Shown: positions 608-63,085 of the stretch, in pieces
How positions within the stretch are numbered: the stretch's first letter is position 1
Layout: the number at the start of each line of letters is the position of its first letter
From: a virus
Direction: 5' to 3' (one strand)
Virus record (IMG/VR): IMGVR_UViG_3300045988_010351
Length of the DNA: 64,000 nt
The notes under the pieces: model-generated
The model's database searches: none
What the model was told of the DNA's origin: nothing
The model's input: only the letters and a program-made list of their open reading frames with translations
Made by a program: the position numbers and the translations under genes

Positions 608-3600
608 ATGGCAAGAAGTTGTGCAATTATTCCAAAGGTAAAGAATAGGAATGGTCAAGTAGTGGATAGCAAGTTATTTAAGGACTTGCTATCCTTCACT
701 TCAAATAACAGAAGTGAAGCTATAAGACTATATCTTATCACAAAAAGCAATCAGTTCATAAAGGACTGGCAACCAAGATTAACATTAGATGAAAACAATG
801 AACCTACATTGAGAAGTCTACTAAAGCAGACTAATATCAGTGAAGTTATTCCAGAAACTAAAGTACTTGAAAGGCTTAATAGAGAAATAGGGTACTATAA
901 GAAAGGAATGGACAGACCAGCCCTATGGGAAAACAATGATGAAAATTATCAAAAGTTGAAACAAAGGGCTATAGCCTTTAATCAAAACTCAGAGTATAGG
1001 GATGATTATGTGGCTAATATAATCAAGATACAAGATTCTGAATCTCCAAGAGTATTCATTGGAGTAAAGGTTGAGAAAAGAAATAGGCTTAACTCTGTCA
1101 ATGCGGATAAGATGGAATACAATGAAAACCTTAATAATAGGTTGAGAGGTATTCTTGAATCTCATGGTATAGGGATAGGTGCTTTGACTGACCTTGAAAG
1201 GAGAATGGGTATTCATGGTGTAACTGATTTTGATGTTGCAAGAAATGCAGCAAATGGTCTTGTTGAAATGATTAGGCTTGCTAATGGTATTCAAGGTGAG
1301 AGAGCACTTCCCGAGGAATTTGCACACTTTGCCATTGAAGCTATGGGAGATAATCCACTTATCAATAGACTTATCAATAACATATCTTCCAATGGACTGG
1401 CAAGAGAAATTATAGGTGAGGACTATGATACCTATGATACTCTATATCATAGTGATGAGGCTAAGTTGGCAAAAGAAGCTGCGGGTAAACTACTTGCAAA
1501 GCATCTTCTTCAAGGTGAGAATATTCCATCTGCTCCTTATAAGAATCTGCTGCAAAGGGTGATTCAAGCAGTCAAGAATTTCTTTAAGAATATTAATGCA
1601 AGTCCTATACAAAGAGCCATAAGGGAGGCTGACAAGAACTTTGGTTCTTTAGCACAGCAAATACTTAATGGCAGCATGGATGAGGTTATTGACATTGGCA
1701 ATATTACCTCAAGTGGAGTGTTTTATAATACCTCAGAGAGAGTGGCAAGAGATAAAAAGCTGCTTCAAGGAGTCATTGAGAATGAGTTAAAGAGGTTGAA
1801 GATTTATGAAAAGAGAAATCCTAATAGCCAGTTTAGTGTTAATCAAAGGTTACTCATTGATAGATTGGAGACTGAATTAGCTGATAACAATGAGATTGAG
1901 GGTATTTATGTTTTTGTTGAGAATGCTCTTGAAGAATTAACCAAGGTAAATAACAGACTTACTATGTTACAGAATACTCCTGCTACTAATGTCAATGAGA
2001 GAGCTGGTGTTCTAAGAGATGTCAGAAACTACTTGTACAGTTATAAGCATATTACTGATGATATTAGGAAGGCTCTTATTGATGAAGAGAGATATGCAGA
2101 CAATAGATATGGTCAGAGAGTAAGGGTAGTATTAGACAACACAACTACACTACTTGGAGACTTGTTTGTCAGATACAACAATGTAGCAATGCCTCTTTTT
2201 GTTGATTTCATTAAGCCTTTTGTGGGAGAGAGTATAACTGTTCCCTTTGGCAAGTTCAAGGGTAAGACTATGACTGCTGAAAGCTTGGTGAAGGTAGCTG
2301 ATAAGGACATATCTTTCTTTGACAGATGGCTTGATTCTATGGCAGACTCTTCAGATTATATGCTGAAAGTTATGGACCAAGCTGTCAAGAAGAGTAAAGA
2401 AAATGCAAGGTTAGAGACTATCAATGTTATGAAGGAGCTTCAAGCTGCTACCATTAAGTTAGAGCAAGCTGGAGTTAAGAACACTGATTGGATGTTTGAA
2501 AGAGACAGTAAAGGTAATCTTACAGGTAATTATATCTCTGAGATTAACCAGGGTCTATTCAAGGAGAAAGTCAGGGAAATGTTCAAGTCTCTCAATGAAA
2601 AATATGGTAAGAATCCTGTAGGAGATAATGCAGAGAAGTACAGAAAAGAGAGACAAGCTTGGTTTGATGCTAATATGGAAGTAGTCAATGGAAAGAAGCA
2701 ACCTAAAGTATCAATCTATGGCAATAAGGCTTATCAGAACTTGAGTCCTGTTCAGAAAGAATACTACAATAGGATTATGGAGATAAAAGCCAAGCTGGAT
2801 TCATACCTTCCTGACAAGTACACTACCTTAACTAATGCAGTTAAAATCAGAAAGGACTTACTTGAAAGAGTAAAGGCTTCTGATGGTGTAAGGTCAGGTA
2901 GTACACAAGTATGGGAAGCTGTTAAAGACCAATTCATTAGAAGGACAGATGACACTGAGTTTGGAGATAGGGCTACAGTAAAGGACTTTGAAGGTAAAGA
3001 GGTACAAGTACTTCCTATCTACTATACTAAGATGAAAGAGGGTGAAAGTCCTAATGACCTATCTACTGATATAGTATCTACTCTCACAGCTTATGCAGCT
3101 ATGGCTAATGACTTCAATGAAATGAATAAAGTAATTGATGTTCTTGAGCTTGGTAGGGATATGCTAAAGGAGAGGGAGATTATACAGACAAGGGGTGGTA
3201 AACCACTGGTTGAAAAGTTCAAGTCTGTAGGTAGGAAAGTTGAATCTACTCTCACTAAATCTGGTGATGAAACAAGGTTCATGCAGAGACTGAATGACTT
3301 CTTTGAAATGCAAGTCTATGGTAGGTATATGGCTGATGAGGGCACATTTGGTAATACCAAGATTGATAAAGGAAAGGTAGCTAACTTTGTTAATAGAATT
3401 ACTTCTCTTAATATGTTAGGTCTAAACCTGTTAAGTGGTATATCAAATGTTACTACTGGTAAAATTATGATGAGAATTGAGTCCTTTGCAGGTGAGTTCT
3501 ATAATGAATCTAATACCTTAATAGCTGACAGGAATTATGGTAAAGCATTGCCAGAGTACTTAGCTGAGATAGGTAACAGAGTTAAGACAAGTAAACTTGC

Positions 3601-51090: not shown

Positions 51091-51388
51091 AAATCATCTT
51101 CTTTCTTTCATTAATAGTCCTACTGTGATGTCCCTTTCTCTTACAAGTATTAGCTTTATTATTGAAAGGTCTCTTAGGGAAGATAATACCATCAAGAGAT
51201 ACATAACCTCTTCTGATTGCTCTTCTTACAGACTTAAACTTGTTTACTGCTTCATAAGTTCTTAGGTGAAGAATACTTTTCTCATAGAAATCTCCCACAA
51301 TATCTACTCTATTCTTCTCCATGTAATCCTTGAACTCCTCTTCACTCATAAGAGGTCTTTCTACTGTCTTCTGCTCTTCCATTTCCAT
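51059..51388 (-). CDS. 109-aa basic hypothetical protein
   Basis: ORF. Confidence 0.4.
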   Translation of the reverse strand: MEMEEQKTVERPLMSEEEFKDYMEKNRVDIVGDFYEKSILHLRTYEAVNKFKSVRRAIRRGYVSLDGIIFPKRPFNNKANTCKRKGHHSRTINERKKMIYEQLKHRKSA

Positions 51389-51395
51389 AATGTTT

Positions 51396-51593
51396 TTATC
51401 TATAGTAGATTAATACAAATTGACCATTCTCTTTAAGTAGAGAAACTATATTCTCTCTTTTAATTCTTTCTTCATTGGCTGCCCTTACAATACCTCTGAT
51501 TGTAGTATCAGTTAGCACAGTCATAATTTGAGAACCCTCTGAACCATTGGTCTTTTTGGTTCTTGTCATCTTTGCTTTTTCTATCTCTTCCAT
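51396..51593 (-). CDS. ~65-aa basic protein, trimmed to Met42 (MEEIEKAK...) of the listed ORF
   Basis: The N-terminal 41 codons of the listed ORF are the translation of a tRNA gene, so the start was moved to the internal Met. Confidence 0.35.
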   Translation of the reverse strand: MEEIEKAKMTRTKKTNGSEGSQIMTVLTDTTIRGIVRAANEERIKRENIVSLLKENGQFVLIYYR

Positions 51594-51608
51594 ATAAAGT
51601 AATTTAGT

Positions 51609-51683
51609 TACGGGGGGAGGACTCGAACCTCCAACCTCAAGGTTATGAGCCTTGCTAGCTACCATTGCTATCACCCCATGATA
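51609..51683 (-). tRNA. tRNA-Met: tRNA-Met/Ile (anticodon CAT), array member 1
   Basis: Anticodon arm CAAGG-CTCATAA-CCTTG, T-arm GGAGG-TTCGAGT-CCTCC and D-arm TAGC/GCTA are clear. The acceptor pairing is imperfect by eye, so the ends are approximate. Confidence 0.55.
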
Positions 51684-51689
51684 TATTAG

Positions 51690-51761
51690 AGCAGATAGTG
51701 GGAATCGAACCCACACATTAACATTGGAAGTGTTACATACTAACCTTTATACTATACCTGC
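51690..51761 (-). tRNA. tRNA-Gly: tRNA-Gly (TCC)
   Basis: Acceptor GCAGGTA/TATCTGC, anticodon arm TAACA-CTTCCAA-TGTTA, T-arm GTGGG-TTCGATT-CCCAC. Confidence 0.65.
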
Positions 51762-51766
51762 AAAAG

Positions 51767-51839
51767 AGCCTCTTATAGGAATTGAACCCATATCTTCTGA
51801 CTACAAAACAGAAATAATTAACCTTTATACTAAAGAGGC
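51767..51839 (-). tRNA. tRNA-like gene with an apparent 9-nt anticodon loop (TTTTGTAGT; possibly Gln-TTG derived)
   Basis: Perfect acceptor GCCTCTT/AAGAGGC and T-arm GGGTTCAATTCC. The anticodon stem TTCTG/CAGAA encloses 9 nt instead of 7. Confidence 0.4.
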
Positions 51840-51843
51840 ATTG

Positions 51844-51929
51844 TAGCTTCAGTGGGATTTGAACCCACAAGAACATTACTGTTCAAAGGATTTTAAGTCC
51901 TCCGTGTCTACCATTTCCACCATGAAGCC
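51844..51929 (-). tRNA. tRNA-Leu: tRNA-Leu (TAA), type II
   Basis: Anticodon arm GAGGA-CTTAAAA-TCCTT, long variable hairpin GAAC-AGTAAT-GTTC, T-arm GTGGG-TTCAAAT-CCCAC. Confidence 0.6.
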
Positions 51930-51937
51930 ATCCAGTA

Positions 51938-52384
51938 TCAATAAGGCTTTACATCACATAAGTGGAACAAGTAGTCATACTTATTGACATTCTGAATAAA
52001 GGTCTCACATTCAGATGTTATACCTTTATATATGGTCTCTTGAGGAATCTTATCATAGAATGCAATAGTAGCAGACTTAACCTCACTTATAAAGTCAAAA
52101 GCATTCAGTGCATCACTTGGAGTTCCTTTGATTACATTAGGTTGTATCTTGCCAAGTATTCCCATATATCCTTCTGCAAGCCCATCTTGATAATCTGACA
52201 ATATGTCAAGGAACTCATCAAGATACACATGGATATTCTTCTTAGGTGCTGCCCAATGCAGATTCTTACACTTAGTCTTCCAACCTTCAAGCTGATTTAA
52301 GAAGTTAATAAAGAACTGAGAACCAGATACTTCTGTACTTCTGCTTGATTCCATTGGAGTAAATAGGCTATCTTCTTCAAACAT
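51938..52384 (-). CDS. 148-aa hypothetical protein embedded in the tRNA array
   Basis: ORF between tRNA-Leu(TAA) and tRNA-Leu(TAG), preceded by promoter-like TAATTTTGCAAC. Confidence 0.5.
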   Translation of the reverse strand: MFEEDSLFTPMESSRSTEVSGSQFFINFLNQLEGWKTKCKNLHWAAPKKNIHVYLDEFLDILSDYQDGLAEGYMGILGKIQPNVIKGTPSDALNAFDFISEVKSATIAFYDKIPQETIYKGITSECETFIQNVNKYDYLFHLCDVKPY

Positions 52385-52394
52385 ATTCTCTTAT

Positions 52395-52440
52395 TTTGAT
52401 GTTGCAAAATTAAGCAAAATAATTGGAACTACCAAACATT
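52395..52440 (-). promoter_or_regulatory. extended promoter-like element, a variant of the conserved motif (minus-strand TAATTTTG)
   Basis: AAGCAAAATAATTGGAACTACCAAACATTTTCC is about 70% identical to the element at 55805-55850. Confidence 0.4.
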
Positions 52441-52468
52441 TTCCTAACTATTTTCCAATTATTTTTAG

Positions 52469-52549
52469 TACCCCCTAAGAGACTCGAACTCTTACACATT
52501 ACTGCGTATGCTCCTAAGGCATATGTGTCTACCATTCCACCAAGAGGGT
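52469..52549 (-). tRNA. tRNA-Leu: tRNA-Leu (TAG), type II
   Basis: Acceptor ACCCTCT/AGGGGGT, anticodon arm TATGC-CTTAGGA-GCATA, T-arm AAGAG-TTCGAGT-CTCTT. Confidence 0.55.
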
Positions 52550-52554
52550 ATTAG

Positions 52555-52629
52555 TGGGTGCTCAAAGAATCGAACTTTATTCTCAGATTTTTCAGACCTG
52601 CGCAATGTAACCATACCTGCCCAACACCC
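52555..52629 (-). tRNA. tRNA-Phe: tRNA-Phe (GAA)
   Basis: Acceptor GGGTGTT/AGCACCC, anticodon arm CAGGT-CTGAAAA-ATCTG, T-loop TTCGATT. Confidence 0.55.
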
Positions 52630-52697
52630 ATAATGACTTATTTGTGTCTCTCCCCACATCACCTTCCATAAGTCAAGGACGAAGATTTCTATTGAAG

Positions 52698-52783
52698 TGG
52701 GAGTAAAAGGAATCGAACCTATTGTGTTTCTAATGTGCCAGATTTACAGTCTGGTGCCCATCCACCATCTGAGCAGTACTCCC
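52698..52783 (-). tRNA. tRNA-Tyr: tRNA-Tyr (GTA), long variable arm
   Basis: Perfect acceptor GGGAGTA/TACTCCC, anticodon arm CCAGA-CTGTAAA-TCTGG; 86 nt. Confidence 0.6.
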
Positions 52784-52825
52784 ATATATATTTATTACTC
52801 ACTCCAACATCAAAGGAACTATATT

Positions 52826-52853
52826 CCAACTGGAATAGTTCCTGAAGGTATCC
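52826..52853. repeat. near-perfect 12-14 bp hairpin between tRNAs
   Basis: GGAACTATATTCCA ac TGGAATAGTTCC. Confidence 0.5.
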
Positions 52854-52961
52854 AAACATAAGACTTAGCAGCTTGTCTAGAGTATGCTTTAATACCCCTC
52901 TTAATTAATGAAATAACCTTTTTCATAACAATTAAAAATTTAGAGTTAATAATATGTTATG

Positions 52962-53034
52962 TTCCCCCATAAGGAGTCGAACCTTACTCTCAAGATTAAA
53001 AGTCTAGAGCATCCACCATCAATGCTTTGGGGGA
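52962..53034 (-). tRNA. tRNA-Lys: tRNA-Lys (TTT)
   Basis: Perfect acceptor TCCCCCA/TGGGGGA, D-arm GCAT/ATGC, anticodon loop CTTTTAA (one stem mismatch), T-arm TAAGG-TTCGACT-CCTTA. Confidence 0.5.
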
Positions 53035-53056
53035 ATATTTGCCAAGGTTGAGATTG

Positions 53057-53130
53057 TGCTCCCACAAGGACTTGAACCTTGAGTCTCCTGTTTAAGAGAC
53101 AGGTGCTTTAACCAATTCAGCTATAGGAGC
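53057..53130 (-). tRNA. tRNA-Lys: tRNA-Lys (CTT)
   Basis: Acceptor GCTCCTA/TGGGAGC, anticodon arm CCTGT-CTCTTAA-ACAGG, T-arm CAAGG-TTCAAGT-CCTTG. Confidence 0.6.
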
Positions 53131-53131
53131 A

Positions 53132-53383
53132 TTATTTCTTTTCATATTTTTCAGACCATGCTTTAGTAATACCTGCTGTTGCAAATACTCCAGCAACAGC
53201 ACCTATATAAGCAGCAAGACCATTAAGGTCTGTCTGTATAGTATGGTTATAACATACTTCTATTATAAGAAGTACAGCAGGAACTAATAGCAGGATTAAA
53301 CCTATTAAAGTAACTGCCACTAAGAAGAAGTTCTTTGAAGAAACTCCTGTATTATTCTTTACAAGTTTATCTATGTAACACAT
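53132..53383 (-). CDS. ~83-aa small membrane protein (two TM helices), trimmed to Met13 of the listed ORF
   Basis: The first 12 codons of the listed ORF overlap the adjacent tRNA-like gene. Hydrophobic FFLVAVTLIGLILLLVPAVLLII and GAVAGVFATAGI segments. Confidence 0.4.
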   Translation of the reverse strand: MCYIDKLVKNNTGVSSKNFFLVAVTLIGLILLLVPAVLLIIEVCYNHTIQTDLNGLAAYIGAVAGVFATAGITKAWSEKYEKK

Positions 53384-53385
53384 AG

Positions 53386-53461
53386 TACTGGCAGAGGGGC
53401 TTGAACCCACATGCACCAATTACCCTTTCTACAATGTATAAGATTGAGGGGATATGCCAGT
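53386..53461 (-). tRNA. non-canonical tRNA-like element (perfect acceptor and T-arm; D and anticodon region aberrant; possible TAT anticodon)
   Basis: Perfect acceptor ACTGGCA/TGCCAGT with T-arm GTGGG-TTCAAGC-CCCTC. The internal 44 nt fold only as CAAT-CTTATAC-ATTG plus CCC/GGG, with no recognisable D-arm. Confidence 0.35.
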
Positions 53462-53468
53462 ATATTGG

Positions 53469-53540
53469 GGTGTCTGATGGGAATTGAACCCACACAATTT
53501 GGAGCCACAATCCAAAGCTCTACCATTAAGCTACAGACAC
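53469..53540 (-). tRNA. tRNA-His: tRNA-His (GTG), discriminator C73
   Basis: Perfect acceptor GTGTCTG/CAGACAC, D-arm GCTT-AATGGTA-GAGC, anticodon arm TTGGA-TTGTGGC-TCCAA. Confidence 0.65.
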
Positions 53541-53542
53541 AG

Positions 53543-53615
53543 TTCTGATGAGTAGACTCGAACTACTAACTACTGCCTTATGAGAGCAGCTTTCTGCCAT
53601 TGAAATACATCAGAA
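53543..53615 (-). tRNA. second CAT-anticodon tRNA (Met initiator/elongator or lysidine-Ile)
   Basis: Perfect acceptor TCTGATG/CATCAGA, anticodon loop CTCATAA, T-arm AGTAG-TTCGAGT-CTACT. Confidence 0.6.
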
Positions 53616-53619
53616 TATG

Positions 53620-53692
53620 TAGGGACAATAGGACTTGAACCTATAACTCCTTCCGTATCAGAGAAGTGCTCTAACCATTGAACTATATCCCT
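53620..53692 (-). tRNA. tRNA-Ile: tRNA-Ile (GAT)
   Basis: D-arm GTTC-AATGGTTA-GAGC, anticodon arm CTTCT-CTGATAC-GGAAG, T-arm ATAGG-TTCAAGT-CCTAT. Confidence 0.65.
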
Positions 53693-53698
53693 ATATTG

Positions 53699-53770
53699 CT
53701 GATGGGATAGGATTTGAACCCATATCAGCTGGTTTTGGAGACCAGTATTTTACCATTAAACTACCCATCA
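53699..53770 (-). tRNA. tRNA-Trp: tRNA-Trp (CCA)
   Basis: Perfect acceptor TGATGGG/CCCATCA, anticodon arm CTGGT-CTCCAAA-ACCAG. Confidence 0.6.
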
Positions 53771-53777
53771 ATTTCTG

Positions 53778-53851
53778 CGGGGAATACAGGACTCGAACCT
53801 GTAACCATTGGATTAACAGTCCACTGCTCTAACCATTAAAGCTAAATCCCC
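53778..53851 (-). tRNA. tRNA-Asn: tRNA-Asn (GTT)
   Basis: D-arm GCTT-TAATGGTTA-GAGC, anticodon loop CTGTTAA, T-arm ACAGG-TTCGAGT-CCTGT. Confidence 0.6.
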
Positions 53852-53854
53852 TAA

Positions 53855-53867
53855 TTTGTTGCTCCTA
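53855..53867. repeat. 13-bp direct repeat TTTGTTGCTCCTA (left copy) flanking the low-GC insertion
   Basis: Exact 13-mer repeated at 54881-54893; a chance 13-mer match in 64 kb is expected about 0.002 times. Confidence 0.6.
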
Positions 53868-53893
53868 ACCATCTGAGCTAAGAGTCCTAATAA
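53862..53893 (-). pseudogene. truncated tRNA (5' acceptor strand plus D-arm only), a remnant at an insertion junction
   Basis: GGACTCT-TA-GCTC-AGATGGTTAG-GAGC then runs directly into the 13-bp direct repeat and the next tRNA, with no anticodon or T-arm. Confidence 0.5.
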
Positions 53894-53922
53894 GTATTAT
53901 TCAAAACATTATAGTGACTTTA

Positions 53923-54825
53923 TTAATGTAAGCCATCTTTCAATATTGTTAATAATTTATTTTTTAATGAACTTTCTTGTTGAGAAATATAATCTATATT
54001 ATTATTGAATATATTTAGATTATTTATGTCCATTTCTTTTATATATTCATATTTTTCAAGAGCTTCTTTTTTAATAGTTTCTAAACTTTTTAGTTGATTG
54101 GTTTTATCATCTAAACAGTTTACAAAATACTTTTGATCAAATATAGTATTTATAAAATTATCACCACAATAAATAGGGATACATCCTGCTAAATAGCTGT
54201 CAAATATTTTTTCAGTAATGTAATATCTATGTTTTACATTCTCAAAACAAATATTAAACTTACTCTTTTCTATAAATGCTATTTTATCATTAATAATATT
54301 ATTAAAAGCATTACCTCCTTTTATTATATTGTTTGAAATATTATTACCAATTTCAATTCTCTTTTGTATTAAATTCAAATCATTTATACAATAATTTGGA
54401 GCATATAAAAAATTGAAATCATAATATTTATTTGATGTATTATTTGAAACAACTATTGAAAAATCATAATCTTTCTTATTCAAAATCTTATGCTTAAACT
54501 TTTCATTCAAATTCTCATAATTACCATCATTATAAATAGGAAGTAAACATTGAATATTTATAATTTTTCTATCATTTATATTAAATACTTTATCTGGTTG
54601 AAATGATATAAAAACATCAACATAATTGCTATAAACTTTAACTAGTGATTCAATATCTAAACATTCACCACATACAAAAATAACTAAATCTGATTTTTGT
54701 TTTCTTTTTTCCAAATTAAAAGAAACTAACTCAACAATATAATTCTGAGGTGTAATTTCTTCTAATATTTTATATAATGGTGAACTTGTGCTAAAATTAT
54801 CCCAAAGTCCATTTAGAATTATCAT
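53923..54825 (-). CDS. GT10-family (alpha-1,3-fucosyltransferase-like) glycosyltransferase, 300 aa, in a very low-GC insert
   Basis: FNICFENVKHRYYITEKIFDSYLAGCIPIYCG matches the FucT motif FxxxFENS(x)nY(V/I)TEK...IPIYxG. GC content is visibly far below the flanks. Confidence 0.6.
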   Translation of the reverse strand: MIILNGLWDNFSTSSPLYKILEEITPQNYIVELVSFNLEKRKQKSDLVIFVCGECLDIESLVKVYSNYVDVFISFQPDKVFNINDRKIINIQCLLPIYNDGNYENLNEKFKHKILNKKDYDFSIVVSNNTSNKYYDFNFLYAPNYCINDLNLIQKRIEIGNNISNNIIKGGNAFNNIINDKIAFIEKSKFNICFENVKHRYYITEKIFDSYLAGCIPIYCGDNFINTIFDQKYFVNCLDDKTNQLKSLETIKKEALEKYEYIKEMDINNLNIFNNNIDYISQQESSLKNKLLTILKDGLH

Positions 54826-54880
54826 ACTATGTATTTATTAGTACAGTTATACTAGCATCAGGGAATATAAGGAATCAAAT

Positions 54881-54893
54881 TTTGTTGCTCCTA
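54881..54893. repeat. 13-bp direct repeat TTTGTTGCTCCTA (right copy, overlapping the 3' end of tRNA-Val)
   Basis: See the left copy. Confidence 0.6.
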
Positions 54894-54958
54894 CAAGACT
54901 CGAACTTGTGACCTTTGGTGTGTAAAACCACTGTTCTTAACCACTGAACTAAGGAGCA
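54885..54958 (-). tRNA. tRNA-Val: tRNA-Val (TAC)
   Basis: Perfect acceptor TGCTCCT/AGGAGCA, D-arm GTTC-AGTGGTTAA-GAAC, anticodon loop TTTACAC, T-arm CAAG-TTCGAGT-CTTG. Confidence 0.55.
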
Positions 54959-55046
54959 TTGATAGGGCAGTTTCTTTAACCTCTAACTGCCCAAAAGAGG
55001 GTTCAAGCAAAAAGCTCAACATTATGAAAACATGAAAACATAGTGT

Positions 55047-55119
55047 GGAGCAAGAGGGACTCGAACCCTTAATTCTTCCTTGCAAAGGAAGTATGTTAGC
55101 CAATTACATCACTTGTCCC
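55047..55119 (-). tRNA. tRNA-Ala: tRNA-Ala (TGC)
   Basis: D-arm ATGT-AATTGGCTA-ACAT, anticodon arm CTTCC-TTTGCAA-GGAAG; the acceptor has one mismatch. Confidence 0.55.
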
Positions 55120-55246
55120 AAATGAGGGTATAGGCTATCAACCCTCTTGTAGGCAGTCACCATTCATTCCCTACTTTATATACCCTAAAGGTGGTATCAC
55201 CTACCCTCTTGTACTGGGGTGAGCATCTTATATTTCTATAAGAACG

Positions 55247-55322
55247 TAGAGTAGACAAGACTCGAACTTGCAATATCACTGCATCCCAAATGCAGGGGGC
55301 TAACCAATTAGCCTACTACTCT
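55247..55322 (-). tRNA. tRNA-Pro: tRNA-Pro (TGG)
   Basis: Perfect acceptor AGAGTAG/CTACTCT, D-arm GGCT-AATTGGTT-AGCC, anticodon arm CTGCA-TTTGGGA-TGCAG. Confidence 0.6.
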
Positions 55323-55328
55323 ATATTG

Positions 55329-55414
55329 CGGAGAGCAATGTACTCGAAACATATACAATTACTTGTACACTTTGCTTAGCAGGCAAGCCCCATAACCTTA
55401 TGGGTTTACTCTCC
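55329..55414 (-). tRNA. tRNA-Ser: tRNA-Ser (GCT), type II
   Basis: Acceptor GGAGAGT/GCTCTCC, anticodon arm CTTGC-CTGCTAA-GCAAG, variable hairpin TACAA-GTAAT-TTGTA; 86 nt. Confidence 0.6.
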
Positions 55415-55450
55415 AATTTGCCTACCCTACCATATAGGAATAGGACTTTT

Positions 55451-55534
55451 AGTTGGGTAGCAGACTATGAGGGAATTGAACCCATAATCTCCACATTGAA
55501 AGTGTGGTGACTTAACCACTTCGTCTAACCCAAC
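55451..55534 (-). tRNA. non-canonical 84-nt tRNA-like element (anticodon arm CCACA-CTTTCAA-TGTGG suggests TTC/Glu; extended T-arm plus 7 extra nt before the acceptor)
   Basis: Perfect acceptor GTTGGGT/ACCCAAC and a perfect anticodon arm. The T region forms a 10-bp arm (AGATTATGGG...CCC-TC-ATAGTCT) that does not fit a cloverleaf. Confidence 0.35.
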
Positions 55535-55539
55535 ATTGG

Positions 55540-55611
55540 TACCCCCTATAGGAATCGAACCTATATCAAAAGATTAGAAGTCTCTTATTCTGTCCATTGA
55601 ACTAAGAGGGC
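55540..55611 (-). tRNA. tRNA-Arg: tRNA-Arg (TCT)
   Basis: Anticodon loop CTTCTAA, T-arm ATAGG-TTCGATT-CCTAT, acceptor GCCCTCT/AGGGGGT with wobble pairs. Confidence 0.55.
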
Positions 55612-55629
55612 ATTTACCTTTACTATTGT

Positions 55630-55700
55630 TACCCCAACAAGACTCGAACTTATGTTACAGGAGCCAAAATCCCGTGTAATAACCAACTATACTATGGGGC
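55630..55700 (-). tRNA. tRNA, identity uncertain (loop ATTTTGG gives a possible TTT or TTG anticodon)
   Basis: T-arm TAAG-TTCGAGT-CTTG and acceptor GCCCCAT/TTGGGGT are present, but the anticodon stem has a mismatch and an ambiguous register. Confidence 0.4.
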
Positions 55701-55749
55701 AATAAAAAGGAATGTTACTCTAAAACAACTGGTTAAAAGTAACATTCCT
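55700..55749 (-). terminator. rho-independent terminator or attenuator upstream of the tRNA array
   Basis: Perfect 11-bp stem AGGAATGTTAC / GTAACATTCCT with a 20-nt loop. Read on the minus strand it is followed by TTTTTATT. Confidence 0.5.
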
Positions 55750-55796
55750 AACAATGGAAATTTCCTAAAACCAATCTCTCTTTCTTAATTGCTCTG

Positions 55797-55850
55797 CAAA
55801 GGTAAGCAAAATATTTGAAACCACCAAACTTTTTCTCAATTATTTTAGTT
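55797..55850 (-). promoter_or_regulatory. conserved promoter motif copy with an extended downstream element (candidate promoter of the tRNA array)
   Basis: CTGCAAAGGTAAGCAAAATATTTGAAACCACCAAACTTTTTCTC; the minus-strand -7 box is TACCTTTG. Confidence 0.45.
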
Positions 55851-55916
55851 CAAGCACCATTTTCTTGTCATGAAGGAGTAAAGTTAGGCTTTGGTTTTAG
55901 GTCTAATCTATATTCT

Positions 55917-56324
55917 TTAAGTAATTCCTACTAACTTGTTAGCCCAATATTCAGTATAAAAACTGTAGTAGTTCCATTTAATTCCTATCTTACTACATAG
56001 ATAATGCACTATGTTATGTAGTAATGATGGAATTCCTATCACTATCAAATATAGTGGACCTAATATATCAGATTGCTTACTATGGCCAAATTCATGTTGG
56101 ATAGACTTTTGTGATGACATAGTATCCACAAAGATATAGTTACCTAAGGACATAGTTGGTAGCACATCATTATATATCATAGTGTTACCTCCTACTATAC
56201 CTTCTCTATATGCTGCCTCACACAATATACCCTCTATACATAAAGCAAGCATATTCTGTGGGAACTGCCATAACCACATCAATAAATTCTTAATATAACT
56301 ACTAATCTTCTTCATTTTCTTCAT
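55917..56324 (-). CDS. 135-aa membrane protein with an HExxH motif (putative zinc metallopeptidase-like)
   Basis: IQHEFGHSKQSD flanked by hydrophobic helices; it is the first gene of the minus-strand block. Confidence 0.4.
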   Translation of the reverse strand: MKKMKKISSYIKNLLMWLWQFPQNMLALCIEGILCEAAYREGIVGGNTMIYNDVLPTMSLGNYIFVDTMSSQKSIQHEFGHSKQSDILGPLYLIVIGIPSLLHNIVHYLCSKIGIKWNYYSFYTEYWANKLVGIT

Positions 56325-56835
56325 TAATTATTGGATATAATATATCCCTAGAGCTGGATTAACAGCCTTCAAGACAGCTATTTTTAGCTTTCCTATCAAT
56401 TACTTACTTCAGTAGACCCGGTCTTTTAATCCTCTAAAGTCTGATTCCCTGTGCCTTTTCTCAGTGTGATGTGCTCAGACAATCTACCTTATAAAGTAAC
56501 CATTTGTGTAGTATTGGGGACACCTCTCTATTATTTATAGATACTACCCAACTTCTGCCCCACTACTTTTTATCCTCATGGGGGATAACCTAATCACACT
56601 TAGGTTCTACGAGGTACAAAGATAAGTAAAAGAAATGATATGACCAAATGTATAAATAGAAAATTTATTGATTATAGAGATAATTTTTTTTTTCTGATTT
56701 TTTTTTTGAAAAATTTTTGGTATTTGTAGGAGTGGTACTTACACCAACCACACCCTCCCCATCACTCAGCCCGAGGGGGTCCTACCCCCAAGGGTTAGGC
56801 AATATTGCCGTATAACTGACTAAAACTTTATAACC
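56325..56835. other. 510-bp non-coding divergent control region (candidate bidirectional promoter region, replication origin or structured ncRNA)
   Basis: No ORF. Contains T10/T11 tracts at 56687-56712 and an unusually GC-rich segment at 56745-56810 that forms CCCGAGGGGG-TCCTA-CCCCCAAGGG. Confidence 0.4.
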
Positions 56836-57114
56836 ATGTCAGCAAACAATCTTATTTTCCACGACACTCTTACAGTAGAGCAATTCAAAGACAAGATGAA
56901 AGTCTCACGGATTGAAGTAAAGAAGAATCCCAAGTCGGGAAAGTTATTCTTTTCTTACGGAGCAAAAACAGGAGCTGTTGCATCAAAGGGTATTCCAAAG
57001 AACCCTATGTTCTCCTTTGTAAAGGGAGACCCTACTCCTCAGAATCCCTCAGGGGAATTCTGGCTCCTCCATGAGGAAGGCCAGGGAGGTGCACCTGTAT
57101 TGGCCACCTTCTGA
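56836..57114 (+). CDS. 92-aa hypothetical early protein
   Basis: ORF followed by a clear terminator. Confidence 0.5.
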   Translation: MSANNLIFHDTLTVEQFKDKMKVSRIEVKKNPKSGKLFFSYGAKTGAVASKGIPKNPMFSFVKGDPTPQNPSGEFWLLHEEGQGGAPVLATF

Positions 57115-61386: not shown

Positions 61387-61458
61387 GCTCCTATAGTTCA
61401 ATGGATAGAACATCTCTCTCCTAAAGAGAAAATGTAGGTTCGATTCCTACTGGGAGTA
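61387..61458 (+). tRNA. tRNA-Arg: tRNA-Arg (CCT)
   Basis: D-arm GTTC-AATGGATA-GAAC, anticodon arm TCTCT-CTCCTAA-AGAGA, T-arm GTAGG-TTCGATT-CCTAC. Confidence 0.6.
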
Positions 61459-61544
61459 CTAAGGTATTACTCATATAAGGTAATTTGATTGTTTTTAGGT
61501 ATGTGAATTTGAAGGAATTTGTATGTGAATATGAATTCCTTTAT

Positions 61545-61616
61545 GTCTCCATAGTTCAAGGGATAGAACAATAGTCTTCTAAACTATATATCTGAGTTCG
61601 AGTCTCAGTGGAGATA
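61545..61616 (+). tRNA. tRNA-Arg: tRNA-Arg (TCT), second copy, on the plus strand
   Basis: Acceptor GTCTCCA/TGGAGAT, anticodon arm ATAGT-CTTCTAA-ACTAT, T-arm CTGAG-TTCGAGT-CTCAG. Confidence 0.6.
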
Positions 61617-61859
61617 CAATGGTGGATTTAGCTCACTATTTCTACTAAGCAGTGGAACCTGAAGATAAGCAAAATGTGATGCTGATAGGCAAGCTATCAC
61701 CACTTAGTAAATGCAAGGGCTTCAATGTGGGGATATAAAGAAGAAGCTACGTGACTTTAAGTACAATAATTTCAATAGGAAAAGCTGTATGACTTTGTTA
61801 GGACATTCTTTCAATAAGAAATGAATCCATTTTTACATAAATAACTAAAACAGTAAGAT

Positions 61860-62759: not shown

Positions 62760-63012
62760 ATAAGGACTTGGGATATTAATCCCTAACCTTATTGAATACA
62801 TATAGTAAGTATCTGTTAAAATATACATAATGGCTAATAAAATGTAATATAATATCTAATGCTTAACCGTTAGATAGTCTGTTATTCCAAAATAACCAAC
62901 CCTATGAAGTCTGACTGATGGAGGGATGTTCTTGTTCTTGGTGGTTTAACAGGTTCTTGCTATTGATATTGGCTTTGTGTTAGTAGGTATTTACTATATG
63001 TAACTTGTCTTT

Positions 63013-63085
63013 GTATCTTGGTGTAATTGGTAGCACACTGACTGTTAGGTTGGAGGTTAGGTTCGAGTCCTAAGATACACCAATT
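63013..63085 (+). tRNA. tRNA-like gene with canonical D- and T-arms but an unresolved anticodon arm
   Basis: Acceptor TGTATCT/AGATACA, D-arm GTGT-AATTGGTAGC-ACAC, T-arm TTAGG-TTCGAGT-CCTAA; no 5-7-5 anticodon stem-loop found by eye. Confidence 0.35.

Follow-up and report, generated by a model that had tools for sequence, protein, structure and literature searches.

A candidate tRNA-Ile(UAU) with rewired segment order in the tRNA array of a crAss-like phage

Background

The transfer RNA (tRNA) cloverleaf is among the most conserved RNA architectures. To our knowledge, the reported exceptions are either truncations in animal mitochondria or genes whose products are processed back into a cloverleaf. 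Here we analyse a 64,000-nucleotide (nt) stretch of viral DNA, IMG/VR record IMGVR_UViG_3300045988_010351 (the window), which contains a minus-strand tRNA gene array at 51607-55701. The main subject is one member of this array, at 53386-53461, a candidate tRNA-Ile(UAU) whose segments follow each other in an order different from that of the cloverleaf. We call this arrangement rewired.

The window comes from a crAss-like phage of the crAss001-like group (Steigviridae), its nearest GenBank records being bajarodcaudo virus 1, cr85_1, cr128_1 and crAss001, and the tRNA array itself is an already known feature of this group. The arrays of crAss001 (MH675552), cr85_1 (MT774390) and Kehishuvirus 'tikkala' (OQ198717) share one order, from a Gln-Arg-Glu-Asp end to a Thr-Gly-Met end. 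Both these arrays and that of the window contain an embedded DpsA-like gene and interspersed small open reading frames (ORFs) and have the same neighbouring genes. Unlike the crAss001-like arrays, the window array lacks tRNA genes for Asp, Glu(CUC), Gly(GCC), Cys and Ser(UGA), contains a GT10-like ORF, an ORF of 83 amino acids (aa) for a membrane protein and a Glu/Asp chimera, and has the rewired tRNA-Ile(UAU) in place of the canonical one.

The D hairpin is also missing from its usual place, leaving a three-way junction, in mitochondrial tRNAs that lack the D arm. Examples are metazoan mitochondrial tRNA-Ser(AGY) and nematode and arachnid mitochondrial tRNAs (reviews PMC7609411 and PMC4394434). 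In such tRNAs a short loop replaces the D arm, the elbow formed by G18-G19 and the T loop is lost, and adapted partner proteins are needed. In contrast, the rewired tRNA has a covarying D-like helix of three base pairs (bp), the full D-loop consensus and a normal length of 76-78 nt.

Segments in non-standard order are known from permuted, split and multi-intron tRNA genes, as in Cyanidioschyzon merolae and Nanoarchaeum. These are processed back to a contiguous canonical tRNA, whereas the rewired gene begins and ends with the acceptor strands as usual, and it is an inner segment, positions 10-21, that appears transposed. We know of no bacterial pathway that would restore the standard order. Circularly permuted tRNAs made in the laboratory demonstrate that folding tolerates the re-connection of strands. 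Finally, the tRNA-like structures of plant RNA viruses (for example Rfam RF00233) resemble the rewired tRNA in being viral, in mimicking the tRNA shape and in their non-canonical connectivity. However, they are elements of the 3' untranslated region with a pseudoknotted acceptor stem, whereas the rewired tRNA is a free-standing gene in a tRNA array.

Results

Structure of the rewired tRNA gene

The gene at 53386-53461 starts with the 5' acceptor strand ACUGGCA, UA (positions 8-9), UCCC (22-25) and C (26). The anticodon arm UCAAU-CUUAUAC-AUUGU and AGAAA (positions 44-47, with G at 45) come next, followed by GGGU (10-13), AAUUGGUGCA (D-loop positions 14-21), U (48), the T arm GUGGG-UUCAAGC-CCCUC, the 3' acceptor strand UGCCAGU and A73. 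Both the D loop and the D-stem 5' strand are therefore placed 3' of the anticodon arm. Segment 10-21, which in a standard tRNA links positions 9 and 22, here seems to have been inserted between 47 and 48; on this assumption the lengths of the segments and their conserved bases correspond one-to-one to those of a standard tRNA.

The element has the 7-bp acceptor stem, the discriminator and the T arm with a UUCRANY loop that are expected of a tRNA, and both helices covary among the 98 sequences described below. The 7-nt anticodon loop CUUAUAC has U33 and a purine at position 37; four pairs of its stem covary, and 27·43 is U·U. Between positions 9 and 26 the D hairpin is missing, with only UCCCC separating UA from the anticodon stem, and the element neither reaches the gathering threshold nor is called by a tRNA finder. 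An earlier note on this DNA, made by reading the sequence, had described a perfect acceptor and T arm with no D arm at this place. This was borne out: there was neither an ARAGORN call nor a match to the Rfam tRNA model. The Rfam search (cmscan at E<=10 over 51300-56900) returned nothing in this region but tRNA matches and chance-level noise. ARAGORN made no call here in the default, intron (-i), mitochondrial (-mt) and transfer-messenger RNA (tmRNA; -m) modes, and a tmRNA, an intron-bearing tRNA and a mitochondrial-type tRNA were rejected on that basis. The minimum-free-energy fold is no better than that of shuffled sequences (z = -0.11), and thermodynamics alone would miss this gene.

The closest canonical counterpart is the tRNA-Ile(UAU) gene of cr85_1 (2967-3041). 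The two genes occupy the same array slot and share the anticodon-arm sequence AATCTTATACATT with the loop CUUAUAC, A73, a 7-bp acceptor stem and a UUCRA T loop. However, the rewired gene lacks the D hairpin at its usual place: its two D-stem strands stand on either side of the anticodon arm, and its D loop leads on to the T arm. This displacement breaks the cloverleaf that tRNA finders expect. The rewired gene lies 4 nt after its neighbour, the tRNA-His gene, as other members of the array do.

The displaced D loop looks normal: it has A14, A15, G18-G19 and A21, and its α and β regions are of variable length, which is also true of standard D loops. The retention of these bases and the lack of a call in the mitochondrial mode set the element apart from mitochondrial tRNAs without a D arm. 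It does not resemble the permuted genes of C. merolae either, since the acceptor strands at the gene ends pair and only 10-21 is displaced. Comparison with RF00233 gave one 16-bit match at chance level, to the Glu chimera and not to this gene.

In the rewired molecule, stacking of the D stem on the anticodon stem would be preserved, contact between the D and T loops would remain possible, and U48, which follows the D loop, would be the partner of A15. All helices and the usual bases of tertiary contacts would remain available for the L shape. From the sequence we infer that the RNA may adopt an L-shaped fold, be aminoacylated and be used by the ribosome.

The rewired family

BLAST retrieved the rewired tRNA at full length in 27 fetched crAss-like loci with 88-94% identity. 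Among these, the anticodon stem has the compensatory variants CAAT/ATTG, CTGT/ACAG and GACT/AGTC. The acceptor strand is ACTGGCA, ACTAGCA or AGTGGCA, each with the matching 3' strand (two double changes), and a U·U of the T stem is replaced by U-A, A-U or G·U. Pattern scans extended this to IMG/VR, where 74, 103 and at least 119 stretches had the rewired architecture; they lie on contigs of 4 to 372 kilobases (kb) from many ecosystems. At least 105 distinct rewired sequences were parsed.

All share one order: 7 nt of acceptor, UA, usually UCCC or UCUC, C, a 5+7+5 anticodon arm, AGAAA, usually GGGU or GAGU, AAU..GG..A (10-12 nt), U, the T arm, 7 nt of 3' acceptor strand and the discriminator. 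With the D-like helix left unconstrained, nine forms of it were observed (TCCC/GGGT, TCTC/GAGT, TCCG/CGGT, TACC/GGTT, TAGG/CCTT, TCCA/TGGT, TCGC/GCGT, TCGG/CCGT and TTCC/GGAT). Its three inner positions are fully paired in 37 of 38 distinct sequences, and the outer U·U is invariant.

All four helices of the family covary. In the alignment of 98 sequences, 93% of cells are paired, compared to 62.8% in shuffles; this percentage is partly due to construction, since the sequences were collected via patterns and pairing filters, whereas the diversity of pair types is not. Changes on both sides occur in 19 of the 20 pairs. The covariation score is 0.779, against 0.201 in shuffles (none of 500 reaches the observed value) and 0.10-0.16 in slid controls. 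RNAalifold independently recovers the same 19 pairs.

A covariance model of the family (R1) gives 85-95 bits for members and at most 25 bits for canonical tRNAs. The window gene scores 90.5 bits (E about 2e-21, a rough value) and belongs to the family; being row 1 of the underlying alignment (A2), it matches the model partly by construction, and its BLAST relatives provide independent support. Two divergent members with the anticodon GAU were seen on jumbo-phage contigs (L223, 65-142, minus strand, and L172, 257-333, plus strand), scoring 57 and 49 bits respectively. They have AGUCU linkers and longer D-like loops, and stand in tandem with a standard rewired UAU member.

The family occurs in crAss-like, Streptomyces, jumbo and marine phages. 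Its carriers in GenBank are bajarodcaudo virus 1, cr130_1 (Suoliviridae), Kehishuvirus 'tikkala' and 40 records of Streptomyces phages, two of which (EGole and Jay2Jay) were examined and belong to Samistivirus. The rewired tRNA is unannotated in 39 of these 40 records and in the crAss-like records with matches; in EGole, where it is a GAU member, it is labelled 'tRNA-Leu, UUA'. In 'tikkala', a GAU member lies in an unannotated gap, where crAss001 has a canonical tRNA-Ile(GAU).

In EGole (L316, 660-1271) and Jay2Jay (L317), a nucleotidyltransferase gene precedes the rewired tRNA by 13 nt. The product of this gene matches Pfam RlaP (26.1 bits), a family of the RNA repair pathway within the polymerase-β superfamily, and a functional link with the rewired tRNA is possible. 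In the crAss-like arrays examined, no RlaP-type gene was found beside the rewired tRNA.

ARAGORN calls none of 99 family members. The Rfam tRNA model gives four other members 24.5-31.4 bits, the threshold being 29, and does not match the window copy. A scan of 185,579 bacterial and archaeal species, with one genome per species, yielded 44 pattern matches, of which about eight are real members. All of these are on contigs of metagenome-assembled genomes, mostly with phage-like tRNA clusters next to them, and isolate chromosomes contain none; a cellular origin of the family was rejected on these grounds. Searches of open-access papers and bioRxiv, with the core sequence among the queries, found no description of the rewired architecture. 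The family is essentially unannotated.

Identity elements and replacement of the canonical gene

Among 105 sequences, the anticodon is UAU in 93, GAU in four, CAU in two and UCU in six. A scan excluding A35 added CCU and UCG, and nothing other than Arg. The family thus comprises anticodons of Ile (UAU, GAU), CAU (Ile2 or Met) and Arg (UCU, CCU, UCG). A73 is found in all NAU members, and U follows G18-G19 in all except one of them. The Arg members all have A at position 20 and either A or G at position 73. According to PMC9976931, the determinants of bacterial arginyl-tRNA synthetase are A20, C35 and A/G73, and those of isoleucyl-tRNA synthetase are A73 and U20. As aligned here, the bases at position 20 and the discriminator switch together with the anticodon, following these bacterial identity rules.

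The rewired element substitutes for the canonical tRNA-Ile(UAU) at the same slot of the array. In 60 related arrays, the slot between His and Lys or Cys contains the canonical gene in 27 cases, the rewired one in 24, both in none and neither in nine. The AUA codon accounts for 46% of Ile codons in the window and is the commonest of them. Some rewired members encode CCA. Judged from the sequence, the gene at 53386-53461 most likely encodes a functional tRNA-Ile(UAU) for decoding AUA.

The tRNA array

The features of the array are listed below.

51607-51680, minus strand: tRNA-Met(CAU) (ARAGORN; Rfam tRNA model 44.8 bits)
51689-51761, minus strand: tRNA-Gly(UCC) (ARAGORN; Rfam 66.8 bits)
51766-51839, minus strand: tRNA-Thr(UGU) (ARAGORN; Rfam 54 bits, full length)
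51843-51929, minus strand: tRNA-Leu(UAA), class II (ARAGORN; Rfam 56.9 bits)
51938-52384, minus strand: 148-aa ORF, DpsA-like (weak Pfam DUF5856 match; annotated homologues)
52468-52549, minus strand: tRNA-Leu(UAG) (ARAGORN and Rfam)
52554-52629, minus strand: tRNA-Phe(GAA) (ARAGORN; Rfam 40.8 bits)
52697-52783, minus strand: tRNA-Tyr(GUA), class II (ARAGORN; Rfam 40.5 bits)
52835-52945, minus strand: 36-aa ORF MKKVISLIKRGIKAYSRQAAKSYVWIPSGTIPVGI, occupying the spacer between Lys(UUU) and Tyr
52961-53034, minus strand: tRNA-Lys(UUU) (ARAGORN and Rfam)
53056-53130, minus strand: tRNA-Lys(CUU) (ARAGORN; Rfam 73.5 bits)
53132-53383, minus strand: 83-aa hydrophobic ORF (ORF listing)
53386-53461, minus strand: candidate rewired tRNA-Ile(UAU) (family model R1, 90.5 bits)
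53466-53540, minus strand: tRNA-His(GUG) (ARAGORN and Rfam)
53542-53614, minus strand: tRNA-Met(CAU), second copy; Ile2, Met or fMet possible (ARAGORN and Rfam)
53619-53692, minus strand: tRNA-Ile(GAU), canonical (ARAGORN and Rfam)
53698-53770, minus strand: tRNA-Trp(CCA) (ARAGORN and Rfam)
53777-53851, minus strand: tRNA-Asn(GUU) (ARAGORN and Rfam)
53861-53887, minus strand: truncated 5' fragment of a tRNA (read from the sequence; called by no tool)
53923-54825, minus strand: 300-aa ORF, GT10 fucosyltransferase-like (Pfam PF00852)
54884-54958, minus strand: tRNA-Val(UAC) (ARAGORN and Rfam)
55045-55119, minus strand: tRNA-Ala(UGC) (ARAGORN and Rfam)
55246-55322, minus strand: tRNA-Pro(UGG) (ARAGORN and Rfam)
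55329-55414, minus strand: tRNA-Ser(GCU), class II (relaxed ARAGORN; conserved in L001 and L002)
55421-55432, minus strand: remnant, 5' end of a deleted tRNA-Ser(UGA) (alignment with L001 and L002)
55451-55534, minus strand: probable tRNA-Glu(UUC)/tRNA-Asp(GUC) chimera (comparison with relatives; partial Rfam match)
55537-55611, minus strand: tRNA-Arg(UCU), canonical (ARAGORN; Rfam 65 bits)
55628-55701, minus strand: tRNA-Gln(UUG) (ARAGORN; Rfam 56.6 bits)
55797-55828, minus strand: promoter-like motif 5' of the whole array (read from the sequence)

ARAGORN finds 20 tRNAs in the array, and the Rfam tRNA model finds the identical 20. With tRNA-Ser(GCU) and the non-canonical element at 53386-53461 there are 22 minus-strand genes, which is the number that had been estimated before by eye, and the 18 canonical isotypes folded then agree with this census. 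The tRNA-Ser(GCU) at 55329-55414, with G73, the anticodon loop CUGCUAA, a long variable arm and an A/U-rich 4-bp T stem, is not called by ARAGORN or Rfam at default settings, and is called by ARAGORN under relaxed or mitochondrial settings. It is shared by the GenBank relatives L001 and L002, where its T stem shows a compensatory change (GUGU/ACAC to AUGU/ACAU). These relatives also have a second Ser-like tRNA (UGA) with an odd T region, GGGGGUCGGGACCUC; of this gene, the window retains only the first dozen or so bases.

Two further members had been suspected of unusual anticodons and turned out to be ordinary tRNAs. The supposed 9-nt anticodon loop at 51767-51839 belongs to tRNA-Thr(UGU), whose 7-nt loop is closed by a U31·U39 mismatch that had been taken for a part of the loop. 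This mismatch is kept in three related lineages (L057, L058, L010, L012), while a fourth has A31-U39. The supposedly ambiguous anticodon at 55630-55700 is that of tRNA-Gln(UUG), which has U1-A72; among relatives its UUUUGG core does not vary, while the flanking anticodon stem covaries. Expanded anticodon loops in Thr and Gln were rejected on the basis of ARAGORN, Rfam and the alignment with relatives.

The three protein ORFs that had been placed inside the array (148, 83 and 300 aa) are real according to the ORF listing and Pfam. The 148-aa ORF has 146 relatives in IMG/VR, matches DUF5856 with 25.7 bits, which is below the cut-off, and its homologue is labelled 'putative DpsA protein' in cr85_1, cr128_1 and crAss001. 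The 300-aa ORF has a C-terminal GT10 fucosyltransferase domain (PF00852, 33.4 bits with a cut-off of 23.9). The 83-aa ORF has two hydrophobic stretches and no Pfam match; its ATG lies 3 nt past the rewired tRNA. With two hydrophobic helices and a charged C-terminus (...SEKYEKK), its product has a holin-like look. In several relatives, another small ORF begins at the same ATG directly after the rewired tRNA, and in cr85_1 the two tRNA genes that flank this position are only 4 nt apart.

The comparison with related arrays included L002, L003 and 80 IMG/VR relatives, the latter fetched via the DpsA-like gene. The genes are co-oriented in a conserved order, in agreement with the annotated arrays of cr85_1 and crAss001; the DpsA-like gene is embedded in the array (77-99% identity to its counterparts in the 80 loci), and there is similarity at the DNA level. 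The 80 relatives keep this order with 0 to 27 tRNAs per array, and thus the array turns over rapidly. The array would supply tRNAs suited to the A/T-rich codon usage of the phage, and its genes may be gained and lost fast by recombination between adjacent tRNA genes.

Several other features were observed in and around the array. Two near-identical promoter-like motifs (TTTG, 20 nt, TAnnTTTG) lie on the minus strand, one at 55797-55828 upstream of the whole array (TTTG, 20 nt, TACCTTTG) and one at 52405-52436 directly upstream of the DpsA-like ORF. As read from the sequence, the latter is a candidate promoter of the Bacteroidota type, and both motifs resemble the Bacteroides -33/-7 consensus. 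The orphan fragment at 53861-53887, between the GT10-like ORF and tRNA-Asn, consists of an acceptor strand and a complete D arm (GGACUCU-UA-GCUC-AGAUGGUUAG-GAGC), and may have been left behind when the GT10-like ORF was inserted. The minus-strand spacers at 54959-55044 (Ala/Val) and 55120-55245 (Pro/Ala) are unusually long and contain a hairpin GGGCAGUU...AACUGCCC and the twice-repeated ACAAGAGGGU. Theta ribozymes, which resemble that of hepatitis delta virus, have been reported beside tRNAs of gut phages (bioRxiv 10.1101/2023.06.13.544163). About 6 kb beyond the array, the opposite (plus) strand carries canonical tRNAs Arg(CCU) at 61387-61459 and Arg(UCU) at 61545-61617.

Unusual tRNA-like genes were also seen in the relatives. 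For the tRNA-Asp of this phage group (L002, 5592-5668; L003, 7345-7420), inspection by eye favours a fold with acceptor and T stems of 8 and 4 bp over the usual 7 and 5. In cr85_1-like arrays (L002 3956-4044; L044, L047, L050, L054), ARAGORN reports an unclassified gene of about 89 nt, 'tRNA-???, anticodon (aa)', placed between Leu(UAG) and Phe.

The Glu/Asp chimera

The element at 55451-55534 had been described as having a perfect acceptor, a perfect anticodon arm and an extended T arm. All these are present in the sequence, and the element is probably a product of a deletion between tRNA-Glu and tRNA-Asp. The Rfam model matches it only in model positions 7-64 (35 bits), and the 76-nt version reported by ARAGORN (55459-55534) pairs poorly in its acceptor. 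The sequence is that of Glu from 55534 to about 55471, and from about 55483 to 55460 it is the T loop and 3' acceptor strand of Asp. The Asp trailer at 55458-55452 (ACCCAAC) pairs with the 5' acceptor strand of Glu.

In close relatives such as L038, L032 and L081, a normal tRNA-Glu(UUC) matches the window exactly as far as the T loop, with Glu(CUC) and Asp(GUC) coming after it. In two others (L057, L065), the Asp gene ends with ...AGGGTTCAATTCCCTCATAGTCTG and then CTACCCAACT, identical to the 3' part of the window element; the T loop, 3' acceptor strand and trailer (CATAGTCTGCTACCCAACT) coincide. The Glu part being as in the former and the Asp part as in the latter, the window carries a Glu-Asp deletion. 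The closest relative, L108 (93% identity), departs from the window exactly at 55471. The junction has no matches in IMG/VR and is absent from all the fetched loci, from 80 related loci and from L108, and a conserved tRNA-Glu with a long T arm was therefore rejected. Other truncations occur at the same spot in L011 and L062, and many relatives have neither the Glu nor the Asp tRNA.

The T loops of Glu(UUC) and Asp(GUC) are near-identical (GGGTTCAAnTCCC), and a deletion joining them would have removed Glu(CUC) and most of Asp. The 'extended T arm' would then be the variable loop and the 5' T-stem strand of Glu pairing with the 3' acceptor strand of Asp, and the 'perfect acceptor' the native Asp trailer pairing by coincidence with the 5' end of Glu. 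Judging by this comparison, the chimera is probably a recent deletion scar, and its product would be crippled or non-functional.

Discussion

Taken together, the data are best described as a known array with two normal tRNAs that had been thought aberrant, a Glu/Asp scar and a working rewired tRNA-Ile(UAU); we assign this combined reading a probability of roughly 0.78. With somewhat less assurance, although still on the favourable side, we consider the rewired element a natural topological isomer of tRNA that would be aminoacylated and active on the ribosome, and that probably arose once, spread across very different phages and radiated by anticodon switching. The switching would be to specificities for rare codons, of Ile (AUA, AUY) and Arg (AGA, AGG, CGA). 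The alternation of rewired and canonical genes would point to selection, for example for escape from a host factor recognising the normal D arm or for altered decoding.

Several observations weigh against the combined reading. The position 27·43 is a pyrimidine-pyrimidine mismatch in 94 of 98 members, and thus the anticodon stem is effectively of 4 bp. The connection from 47 to 10 doubles back along the D helix with only about two spare nucleotides, and the equivalence in three dimensions is argued from how long the segments are and which bases are conserved. That UA, AGAAA and AAU do not vary was partly forced by the search patterns; the covariance-model search found linker variants UGAAA and AGUCU. 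The copy of the cultured phage 'tikkala' has two U·U mismatches in the acceptor stem. As for the scar, the 5' end of Glu and the trailer of Asp pair perfectly over 7 bp, a coincidence without an explanation, which leaves some room for a functional odd tRNA-Glu.

Absence from related genomes had been proposed as a sign of decaying pseudogenes. The Glu element, private to this genome, fits this description, whereas the widely conserved D-arm-less element does not. That the latter is a decaying tRNA-Ile(UAU) whose D arm was lost by indels could be suspected from its position in the slot of the relatives' canonical gene, from the decay seen elsewhere in the array (the Glu/Asp chimera, the Ser(UGA) remnant and the tRNA 5' fragment), and from the silence of ARAGORN and Rfam. 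However, at least 105 distinct sequences from unrelated phages have compensatory changes in every helix, the anticodon, D-like and T loops are conserved, and the identity bases switch with the anticodon; the independent BLAST matches speak against an artefact of pattern selection. Covariation refutes the pseudogene, to which we give practically no credence. Another possibility is that the RNA is tRNA-like and does not decode, being a decoy or sponge for a host nuclease or modification enzyme that targets tRNAs, or a regulatory RNA, as the earlier note had suggested in passing. The non-canonical core and the short anticodon stem would agree with this, as would the alternation of the two alleles among close relatives, such as an arms race might give; phage tRNAs have reportedly been proposed, in an eLife study of 2023, to counter defences that target tRNAs. 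On the other hand, a decoy would need neither a discriminator and a position 20 that switch with the anticodon nor a covarying 7-bp acceptor stem and T arm, strict mutual exclusion with the canonical tRNA-Ile(UAU) would not be expected of it, and some members encode CCA. The decoy idea is disfavoured because the identity bases track the anticodon and the element replaces the canonical gene. We consider it unlikely and retain it at low weight.

The role of the aberrant members as suppressors of frameshifts or stop codons, proposed when their anticodon loops were thought expanded, is not supported. Some crAss-like phages recode stop codons, and the array of one relative (L079) has a tRNA with the anticodon UUA, labelled 'Stop' by ARAGORN, so that some relatives may carry ochre suppressors though the window array does not. 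In the window itself there is a Gln-like tRNA at 63012-63081 (plus strand; ARAGORN 'tRNA-???, anticodon (tt)'), with a perfect 7-bp acceptor, U1-A72 and an anticodon loop of only 6 nt (UGUUAG), which is under the Rfam gathering threshold and could be a pseudogene or an unusual decoder. However, every anticodon loop of the array has 7 nt, including that of the D-arm-less member, with no loops of 8-9 nt; ARAGORN finds no CUA, UCA or UUA anticodon in the array; and no in-frame stops or frameshifts in conserved genes were seen within the window. The ORFs of 2634, 1565 and 1351 aa are uninterrupted in the standard code, and standard-code ORFs of at least 150 aa span 74% of the window. Suppression is thus highly improbable, if marginally less so than decay of the rewired gene. 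A functional tRNA-Glu(UUC) at 55451-55534, with a GUUGGGU/ACCCAAC acceptor stem and a 10-bp bulged T arm, is doubtful, nearly to the same degree as the decoy. It would account for the perfect 7-bp acceptor stem and the intact D and anticodon arms; the predicted fold energy is -26.5 kcal/mol, and GAA makes up 61% of Glu codons. Against it, ACCCAAC is the native tRNA-Asp trailer in L057 and L065, where it has no matching 5' strand, the variable region is lost and the long T arm disrupts the 12-bp stack of acceptor and T stems. The junction is in no other genome, and Glu and Asp are missing altogether from many relatives.

The array, the Thr and Gln tRNAs and the Glu/Asp scar are ordinary, and illustrate the recombinational turnover that could generate such rearrangements as the rewired tRNA. 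If our interpretation of the latter is true, there is a blind spot in tRNA finders, affecting estimates of phage tRNA repertoires and analyses of codon usage. The UAU anticodon is viewed as largely absent in prokaryotes and their phages (PMC8007984), and the family would bear on this view. It would also provide a compact and possibly orthogonal scaffold for tRNA engineering. Family members occur in cultured systems, Kehishuvirus 'tikkala' with Bacteroides cellulosilyticus and Samistivirus phages with Streptomyces, which makes the idea directly testable. If it is true, the requirement of translation would be the L shape of tRNA rather than the connectivity of the cloverleaf.

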